Below, in pieces: positions 12,778 through 14,979 of a stretch of 64,000 nt of DNA. The translations under genes were made by a program, and so were the position numbers. The stretch is from Eledone cirrhosa (lineage: Eukaryota): the NCBI GenBank assembly GCA_964016885.1, contig OZ024742.1, positions 96,658,001 through 96,722,000 on the forward strand, given 5' to 3'. A model generated the notes under the pieces. That model was given only the letters and a program-made list of their open reading frames with translations, did no database searches and was not told the DNA's origin. Position 1 is the stretch's first letter; each line of letters starts with the position of its first letter.

Positions 12778-12945
12778 ATTAGAATTTGGATTTAATGCTC
12801 TGAAATAGCGATATATATGTGAAGACAAACATAGAATATTCGAAAATATTCTGTATGTTTATAATAAACGTTTTGAAGACCCAATCGCTATAGAATAGAA
12901 TACGTCACGTATTACAATTTGAGATTCTCGATAAAAGCAAGGGAA

Positions 12946-12988
12946 GTAATCTACGCGTTTCATTCTTGTTAGAAATCATCAGGATTAC
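12946..12988 (-). ncRNA. Type I hammerhead ribozyme (family A, inverted arm)
   Basis: Reverse complement of 13140-13182. Confidence 0.88.
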
Positions 12989-13139
12989 ATATCCAATGCT
13001 TTTACCGCTATTTCAGAGCATTAAATCCAAATTCTAATTTCTGCCGGACCGGCTACCGTTCTTTCAAACCAGTTCCTGTACACAGCTAAGTATTCAATAA
13101 GTCTCTAGCTGTGTCGTTCTCGATAAAAGCATTGGCTAT

Positions 13140-13182
13140 GTAATCCTGATGATTTCTAACAAGAATGAAACGCGTAGATTAC
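13140..13182 (+). ncRNA. Type I hammerhead ribozyme (family A)
   Basis: gtaatc CTGATGA t-ttct-aaca-agaa-t GAAA cgcg TA gattac; stem I extended by ttctcgataaaagca/tgcttttatcgagaa. Confidence 0.9.
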
Positions 13183-13451
13183 TTCCCTTGCTTTTATCGA
13201 GAATCTCAAATTGTAATACGTGACGTATTCTATTCTATAGCGATTGGGTCTTCAAAATGTTTATTATAAACATACAGAATATTTTCGAATATTCTATGTT
13301 TGTCTTCACATATATATCGCTATTTCAGAGCATTAAATCCAAATTCTAATTTCTGCCGGACCGGCTACCGCTCTTTCAAACCAGTTCCTGTACACAGCTA
13401 AGTATTCTATAAGTCTCTAGCTGTATCGTTCTCGATAAAAGCATTGGATAT

Positions 13452-13494
13452 GTAATCCTGATGATTTCTAACAAGAATGAAACGCGTAGATTAC
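13452..13494 (+). ncRNA. Type I hammerhead ribozyme (family A, unit 2)
   Basis: Identical to 13140-13182. Confidence 0.9.
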
Positions 13495-13763
13495 TTCCCT
13501 TGCTTTTATCGAGAATCTCAAATTGTAATACGTGACGTATTCTATTCTATAGCGATTGGGTCTTCAAAATGTTTATTATAAACATACAGAATATTTTCGA
13601 ATATTCTATGTTTGTCTTCACATATATATCGCTATTTCAGAGCATTAAATCCAAATTCTAATTTCTGCCGGACCGGCTACCGCTCTTTCAAACCAGTTCC
13701 TGTACACAGCTAAGTATTCTATAAGTCTCTAGCTGTATCGTTCTCGATAAAAGCATTGGATAT

Positions 13764-13806
13764 GTAATCCTGATGATTTCTAACAAGAATGAAACGCGTA
13801 GATTAC
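13764..13806 (+). ncRNA. Type I hammerhead ribozyme (family A, unit 3)
   Basis: Identical to 13140-13182. Confidence 0.9.
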
Positions 13807-14979
13807 TTCCCTTGCTTTTATCGAGAATCTCAAATTGTAATACGTGACGTATTCTATTCTATAGCGATTGGGTCTTCAAAATGTTTATTATAAACATACA
13901 GAATATTTTCGAATATTCTATGTTTGTCTTCATATATATATATATATATATATATATATATATATATATATATATATATATATATATATATATATATATA
14001 TATATATATATATATAGAGAGAGAGAGAGAGAGAGAGAGAGAGAGAGAGAGAGAGAGAGAGAGAGATTTACCAAAGGTTAATTAGTCTCTAATACCCAAA
14101 CATTACAATGAAAGAAATCTCTCAGAAAAGCAATATTATATATTAAAATTAAATGAGAAACAAATCCTATTCTGGGAGTATAAAAAGTAGACAACAAATT
14201 ATTCTATCTAACTTCGCTTATATATAGATCTCCCTAACATGGTTTCGTATGGGGAAGAACTATTATTGGAACCACCAATAAAATAATATATATATATATA
14301 TATATATATATATATATATATATATATATATATATATATATATATATTATACATGTACATATATATACTCACACACACACACACACACATATATATACAT
14401 ACGCACACATATATGTATACACATATATATTATATATATATATATATATATATATATATATATATATATATATATATATATATATATATATATATATATA
14501 CATATATATATATATATATATTGTGAGTGTGTATGTAGTGTGTACTGAATACCATGTGTATGAAATGAATTAATGTCTTGGTTATAGATCATTATAGATA
14601 CGATAAAGAATTGTAAGAAGTCAGGGGAGTCAGACTGACTAAATGGCAAGGCAACTAAACATAATAGGAGAATACTGACAGAATAACAAAATACCAGTGG
14701 GAATAGATTTGGCAGGAATTGTGCAAAATCAGAGAAGAATTCGACGTATATTCCAAATCTTGGATTCATAAGTAGTTTTCCACAAAGGCTTTGTCAATTA
14801 TTCATTTATATATATATATATATATATATATATATATATATATATATATATATATAACTTTGATAACTTTGATAGGTTTCGGCCGGTATTGGCCCAGGCC
14901 ATGTCTAACTTAATAGCAACACCTGGCGAAGTCTTACAAATCACTGTTTGGGCACCATGGTCCACTCGAGCAGAGAGTT

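Follow-up and report, generated by a model that had tools for sequence, protein, structure and literature searches.

A protein-less 312-bp hammerhead repeat with the features of a non-LTR retrozyme, likely inserted into a (TA)n microsatellite by a PLE enzyme

We analyzed a 64,000-nucleotide stretch of the Eledone cirrhosa assembly (hereafter the window), an AT-rich eukaryotic DNA dense in (TA)n runs, and focused on a three-unit array of a 312-bp repeat, designated family A. Family A is a protein-less, multi-copy hammerhead repeat of the non-LTR retrozyme class, and the array was likely inserted into (TA)n by the enzyme of a Penelope-like element (PLE) that primed reverse transcription on both target strands.

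Results

The first-pass annotation described three near-identical 312-bp units accompanied by an inverted arm, and this architecture was borne out by Tandem Repeats Finder, BLAST and complement comparison (Table 1). Tandem Repeats Finder gave a period of 312 with 3.0 copies and 99% matches over 13006-13941, of which the last 9 nt are the flanking TA run, leaving unit 3 with 303 nt of its own sequence. Units 2 and 3 are identical as far as 13932. Unit 1 departs from them by substitutions at 13059, 13096, 13113 and 13136, all of them 5' of the first cut site; four random changes would fall inside 78 bp with P ~0.002. TA runs flank the element on both sides (Tandem Repeats Finder), and a target-site duplication is unreadable here, the flanks being (TA)n.

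The inverted arm is 99% complementary to 13121-13350 and 13433-13662, and it is the reverse complement of the latter interval except for a substitution at 12870 and one at the junction. At the sole informative site, the arm carries the allele of units 2 and 3, not that of unit 1. A tail is present on the arm only, where nt 1-33 of the unit match 12810-12778 at 100% (BLAST); the resulting one-sided overhang reaches 33 nt past the internal (AT)4, which is 42 nt past the right end of the body, and the arm ends at nt 174 of the cleaved monomer. Arm and body join head to head through a 5-nt microhomology (13003-13007), in which the join as observed has one substitution, at 13005. Exact microhomology of at least 5 nt would arise at a random join in ~0.8% of cases by chance.

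The element contains no ORF of 120 aa: stops occur in six of the six frames read round the unit, and the longest stop-free stretch is 56 codons. An endless ORF, which a unit length divisible by 3 would permit, was rejected on the same grounds. The RT plus GIY-YIG reading frame of an autonomous PLE was not found in the element, and ARAGORN reported no tRNA. We also rejected a stepwise origin in which each new copy landed in the TA motif of the previous one, because both internal junctions are complete and identical.

Table 1. Coordinates of the family A locus and of a dispersed repeat in the window
Feature	Position	Strand	Basis
Left flank, degenerate (TA)n microsatellite, likely insertion target	12086-12777	.	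TRF period 2, 12086-12779
One-sided tail	12778-12810	-	BLAST
Inverted 5'-truncated arm, 230 nt	12778-13007	-	complement comparison
Hammerhead core of the arm, predicted cut after 12952	12946-12988	-	
Head-to-head junction	13003-13007	.	
Unit 1, 312 bp, four substitutions within 13059-13136	13006-13317	+	
Hammerhead 1 with 15-bp distal helix, core 13140-13182, predicted cut 13176/13177	13117-13203	+	
Predicted 312-nt monomer 1	13177-13488	+	
Internal (AT)4, main 3' end site of the family	13310-13317	+	
Unit 2, 312 bp	13318-13629	+	
Hammerhead 2 with 15-bp distal helix, predicted cut 13488/13489	13429-13515	+	
Predicted 312-nt monomer 2, same sequence as monomer 1	13489-13800	+	
Unit 3, 303 nt, stopping just short of the (AT)4 site, without tail	13630-13932	+	
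Hammerhead 3 with 15-bp distal helix, predicted cut 13800/13801	13741-13827	+	
Right flank, (AT)42 then (AG)25 microsatellite	13933-14066	.	TRF
Copies of the ~185 bp dispersed repeat	8272-11138, 21865-22051, 25905-26017, 29695-29884, 43399-43502, 48314-48488, 63643-63843		

A complete type I hammerhead is found in three of the three direct units. The four 43-nt cores (13140-13182 and its equivalents) are identical letter for letter, in agreement with the earlier description of four identical ribozymes, and place the predicted cuts after 13176, 13488 and 13800 on the plus strand and after 12952 on the minus strand. The perfect 15-bp distal helix ascribed to the ribozyme of each unit was found in all three direct units but not in the arm, which keeps 8 Watson-Crick pairs before the inversion junction. 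Helix I has 6 bp, helix II has 4 bp with a U-U mismatch at its base, and helix III consists of 1-2 bp inside a 6-nt palindrome. The ribozyme thus fits the description of the canonical metazoan type I form, with its 6-bp helix I, 4-bp helix II and 1-2 bp helix III with a palindromic loop (PMC4209133).

The hammerhead motif is not a chance occurrence. The hammerhead region folds with z = -6.6, and in an alignment of six window hammerheads (five distinct, from three repeat families, the PLE motif at 55137 being left out because it misaligned), 10 of 13 pairs change on both sides, a value matched by none of 500 shuffles. In the same alignment 91% of cells pair, against 26-46% in slid controls, where the aligned structure, being drawn from the same sequences, favors its own pairing score. 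At the gathering score, Rfam returned no match in the window; below that threshold, Hammerhead_HH9 matched all four cores at 21.4-21.7 bits against a gathering score of 52 (E ~0.02). The exact hammerhead-core pattern had no match in metagenome contigs and none in viral contigs.

Release of exact 312-nt monomers is a prediction. The two possible monomers are identical, and the monomer folds with z = -3.8, none of 100 shuffles being equally stable. Since helix III is a palindrome of 1-2 bp, cleavage would probably require a double hammerhead; hammerheads of this type are reported to be poor singly and active once two copies pair (PMC4209133, PMC7229834), and one of nine Xenopus retrozyme dimers was cleaved in vitro (preprint 10.64898/2026.07.22.740005). 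In a modeled read-through transcript, base pairing between the arm and a unit would extend over ~230 bp and sequester one ribozyme, so that the locus might give one monomer rather than two.

We investigated further copies of the family in read contigs from three runs of one sample, with the permuted unit 13230-13541 as the reference. Contigs matching one unit numbered 577, 472 and 430 per run, with identities from >99% to <90%; in run X1, 192 contigs were at >=99%, 220 at 95-99%, 144 at 90-95% and 21 below 90%. Contig depths, which are not copy numbers, reached 3950. On these sequence grounds, family A is multi-copy and recently active. A large subfamily among the contigs carries an A to G change in hammerhead loop II (13473) together with a 2-nt deletion just past the distal helix (13519). 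In addition, the window holds a diverged relative of the family at 58470-58815 (score 153 vs a shuffled maximum of 52) that ends at the TA motif of family A. This relative has an ambiguous left end and a hammerhead-like motif at 58700 on the minus strand, in which the core carries the U3-A8 change and helix III is longer and looks stable.

The ends of the repeat were counted on contigs of that one sample, not on genomic copies, and the following holds among the 18 of 63 loose-end entries listed. Contigs leaving the unit at 13317 into (AT)n numbered 7, 9 and 9, single contigs exited at 13345 into (AT)n and at 13343 into poly(A), both near the arm end at 13350, and one loose end had (TA)n preceding it at 13265, the remainder resembling sequence variants. 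None of the listed contigs showed a strand-changing joint, so the inversion junction had no independent support there. Permuted ends, suggested earlier as a check on a circular template, did not emerge from the listed contigs of this sample, the 3' ends of which look fixed and pile up at the TA motif. This is not decisive against a circle, because internal priming fixes 3' ends on a circle too.

Comparable layouts occur elsewhere in the window. Two insertions of a 466-bp hammerhead family (43842-44807 and 42524-43085) have an inverted arm with a one-sided overhang of 58-59 nt and a body halting at the same site into (TA)n. This family is related to a 468-bp one, the array of which ends in a homologous tail, and the arms in independent insertions of the 466/468-bp families have constant outer ends. 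Among the five layouts inspected, that at 56016-57150 misfits: its longer end lies on the body rather than on the arm, and it looks like a fold-back. We considered whether arms diverge more than direct units, but the comparison (5/649 vs 0/931 without unit 1, p = 0.012; 4/1243 with unit 1, p = 0.29) was not used.

Several other repeats were observed in the window. The misfitting insertion, set between (TA)n runs, consists of 1.6 identical units of a 591-bp repeat and a fold-back arm; a descriptor search found no hammerhead in it. A 330-bp near-perfect palindrome adjoining (TA)n at 42121-42450 has hammerhead-like motifs on both arms, and smaller fold-backs lie at 19695-19806, 25409-25544, 22148-22361 and 9735-10113. 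Two partial copies of a 323-bp hammerhead repeat (40098-40624) are 96.6% alike, the second with a mutated core, and have (TA)n at the end. A dispersed repeat of ~185 bp is present in more than 10 copies of 80-96% identity in both orientations (Table 1), and a G-rich 39-bp minisatellite at 60252-62621 (~60 copies) yields long stop-free frames.

A candidate for the type of enzyme involved is encoded in the window. The frame at 53537-54700 gives a weak RVT_1 match (E = 9e-4, below the curated cut-off), has Atlas neighbors in RT, HTH_animal and GIY-YIG families, and contains a CX4CX2C linker, hypothesized to direct microsatellite targeting (PMC8557442), as well as the start of a C-terminal GIY-YIG motif. 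By description, this PLE fits the Neptune/Nematis layout (PMC8557442). It is 5'-truncated and frameshifted, bears its own hammerhead at 55137 and ends in (TA)n. The family A unit showed no similarity to the 3' region of this single window PLE (score 24, shuffled maximum 36), and that region was not similar to the 468-bp family either. Judged from its sequence, the window PLE indicates that such elements exist in the genome, not that this copy is the partner of family A.

The same PLE is part of a composite at 52480-55388, in which the 468-bp hammerhead repeat (2.3 units on the minus strand, ending in (TA)n at the family tail) is fused head-to-head with the 5'-truncated PLE of unrelated sequence. 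The fusion join, at ~53565/53566, has no TA run between the two parts, and the PLE ends in (TA)n. The composite is possibly one insertion primed on two different RNAs. Separately, a reverse transcriptase fragment matching RVT_1 (E = 5.6e-8) lies at 15873-16319 on the minus strand.

Discussion

The locus combines a head-to-head inverted 5'-truncated copy, an overhang of 33-42 nt at one end and a (TA)n microsatellite target. PLE insertions are described as partial tandems accompanied by a 5'-truncated copy in inverse orientation, with 30-40 bp extra on one end but not the other and a bias toward (TA)n (PMC8557442); in rotifer PLEs the tail measures 31 bp and joins show microhomology (PMC3846280). 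In vitro, a purified PLE protein cut each of the two target strands and extended it; its RT started inside linear RNA at two sites, the tail being the gap between them, and uncleaved RNA was the main substrate (PMC11167929). In Naiads, target-site duplications are likewise unreadable within (TA)n (PMC8557442). By analogy with these elements, the one-sided overhang of family A is better explained as a PLE tail than as the sign of a circle. Against the PLE model, the microhomology has a mismatch, two other junctions share only 2-3 nt, the listed contigs do not back the inversion junction, the insertion at 56016-57150 does not fit, and the single window PLE has no 3' similarity to the unit.

An arm that crosses a unit junction was originally read as the outcome of reverse transcription around a circular or multimeric RNA. 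This reading stands in that the template exceeded one cleaved linear monomer: the cut site lies within the span of the arm, and the template of the arm was therefore uncut, re-ligated or reached by a jump. The crossing of the (TA)4 junction, however, is not diagnostic of a circle and requires neither a circle nor a multimer, because this motif sits inside the cleaved monomer (nt 134-141).

In the mechanism that we propose, neighboring hammerheads in multimeric transcripts would pair via their palindromic helix III to set free 312-nt monomers; a host ligase may circularize these, as in coral, mussel and axolotl. A PLE endonuclease would nick both target strands. One nick would prime at the TA motif, from which about three units would be copied, while the other would prime at a second start site, the tail end, from which 230 nt would be copied, and the two cDNAs would anneal at the microhomology. 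Because both cDNAs run through cut sites, the template would have held more than the sequence of one cleaved monomer. Since unit 1 differs in the part that was made last, we incline to a multimer, either uncut or mixed, or to template jumping from one RNA molecule to another, rather than to three rounds on a single circle. The clustered changes of unit 1 could also stem from later gene conversion or assembly polishing.

The leading alternative, improbable in our assessment, is that a PLE-type RT made three rounds of a single circular 312-nt RNA, the arm coming from the same circle. A circle would neatly account for a body that comprises three whole units and both begins and ends at the TA site, and it would suit the identity of units 2 and 3 and of the direct repeats in two other insertions, which match without a difference over 269 and 359 bp. 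Circular retrozyme RNAs are plentiful in coral, mussel and axolotl and have been proposed as templates (PMC7229834), and the circular family A monomer is predicted to retain a stable fold (-66 kcal/mol) in which helix III has no partner. Conversely, all four changes of unit 1 fall within its first 131 nt, leaving the following 181 nt unchanged (P ~0.004 under a uniform rate), a pattern impossible from one circle, and the 468-bp array also holds differing units. A template switch by the cut site, 40 nt past the last change of unit 1, is compatible with the distribution of the changes (P ~0.29). Moreover, the other four window arrays are not whole-number (~1.6, 1.6, 1.6 and 2.3 units), and a tail arises on linear PLE templates (PMC11167929).

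We regard as somewhat less probable again a fold-back origin, in which the cDNA 3' end snapped back and copied its own strand and the trimer grew later by local unequal exchange. The geometry permits it, with arm and unit 1 lying 113 nt apart, and palindromes of this kind occur in the window at 42121-42450 and 56016-56397. Self-priming has been proposed for rotifer PLEs (PMC3846280), as has local expansion after landing (preprint 10.64898/2026.07.22.740005). However, the arm has the unit 2/3 base, not that of unit 1, at the one informative site, and the fixed outer ends of the arms in the 466/468-bp families suggest that synthesis began at a priming site and did not simply halt at random. A partial assembly artefact (an inverted chimeric read, or collapsed or polished units) is very unlikely: near-perfect inverted repeats between long TA runs do assemble poorly, as noted for PLEs (PMC8557442), and no listed read contig spanned the inversion, but private changes separate the arm from the units, several unrelated window families have the same layout, and the read contigs bear out both the family and the site at which it ends.

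The sequence features of family A are those of a non-LTR retrozyme, a described class in which it forms a sequence family of its own: a 312-bp tandem repeat, inside the ~150-450 bp range of the class, a complete type I hammerhead in all three direct units, no coding frame, multiple copies and a stable monomer. Non-LTR retrozymes average ~313-342 bp in invertebrates and amphibians and have been proposed as non-autonomous PLE derivatives (preprint 10.64898/2026.07.22.740005). Family A resembles those of animals in its AT-rich tandem unit with one type I hammerhead each and no ORF, in its self-paired predicted monomer and many copies, and in a trimeric form, dimers and trimers being usual (PMC7229834; preprint 10.64898/2026.07.22.740005). 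Its weak palindromic helix III recalls axolotl HHR_Amex1, and the U-U mismatch at the base of helix II recalls HHR_Amex2 (PMC7229834). It differs from described animal retrozymes in its sequence. Its inverted arm, tail and microsatellite target were not found described for retrozymes in the main texts of PMC7229834, PMC7761336 and preprint 10.64898/2026.07.22.740005. Likewise, a survey of titles and abstract openings, mainly of open literature, found no paper on a PLE scar of retrozymes.

The resemblance to endonuclease-bearing (EN+) PLEs lies in the partial tandem with a head-to-head inverted 5'-truncated copy, the 30-40 nt tail at one end, the microhomology at the 5' join, the (TA)n target and the hammerhead in the repeat (PMC8557442, PMC3846280, PMC11167929). 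Unlike PLEs, family A has no RT or GIY-YIG frame, its hammerhead is canonical with an extended helix I rather than the minimal PLE form, and a matching pLTR was not found in the single window PLE. Non-autonomous PLEs with head-to-tail arrays are known in Chlamydomonas (PMC8557442, PMC9977147). Similar to Chlamys MRC1 (PMC8557442), family A would be a protein-less PLE dependant with multicopy head-to-tail insertions, whereas hammerheads are absent from most Chlamys elements, and the non-autonomous members as a rule have 3' sequence in common with an autonomous family (PMC8557442).

More speculatively, tandem arrays may be built by RT jumping between RNA molecules at the ribozyme cut site, with retrozymes integrated by PLE two-strand priming at fixed internal sites; we offer this as a tentative idea that is more doubtful than probable. 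If true, the foreign 5' segment of unit 1 would be the mark of such a template jump, the fusion at 52480-55388 would be one insertion primed on two RNAs and hence a direct genomic record of trans-mobilization, and the ribozyme would have a role in array building.

The link between retrozymes and PLEs is already published, on the basis of co-occurrence and phylogeny, and taken as a single locus the family A array is ordinary. A PLE scar nevertheless makes retrozyme mobilization testable from genomes. In a very young family with a complete PLE-type scar, both the mode of integration and the circle as a template are addressable from the host assembly, and family A could serve directly as a substrate in the PLE assay already established in vitro.
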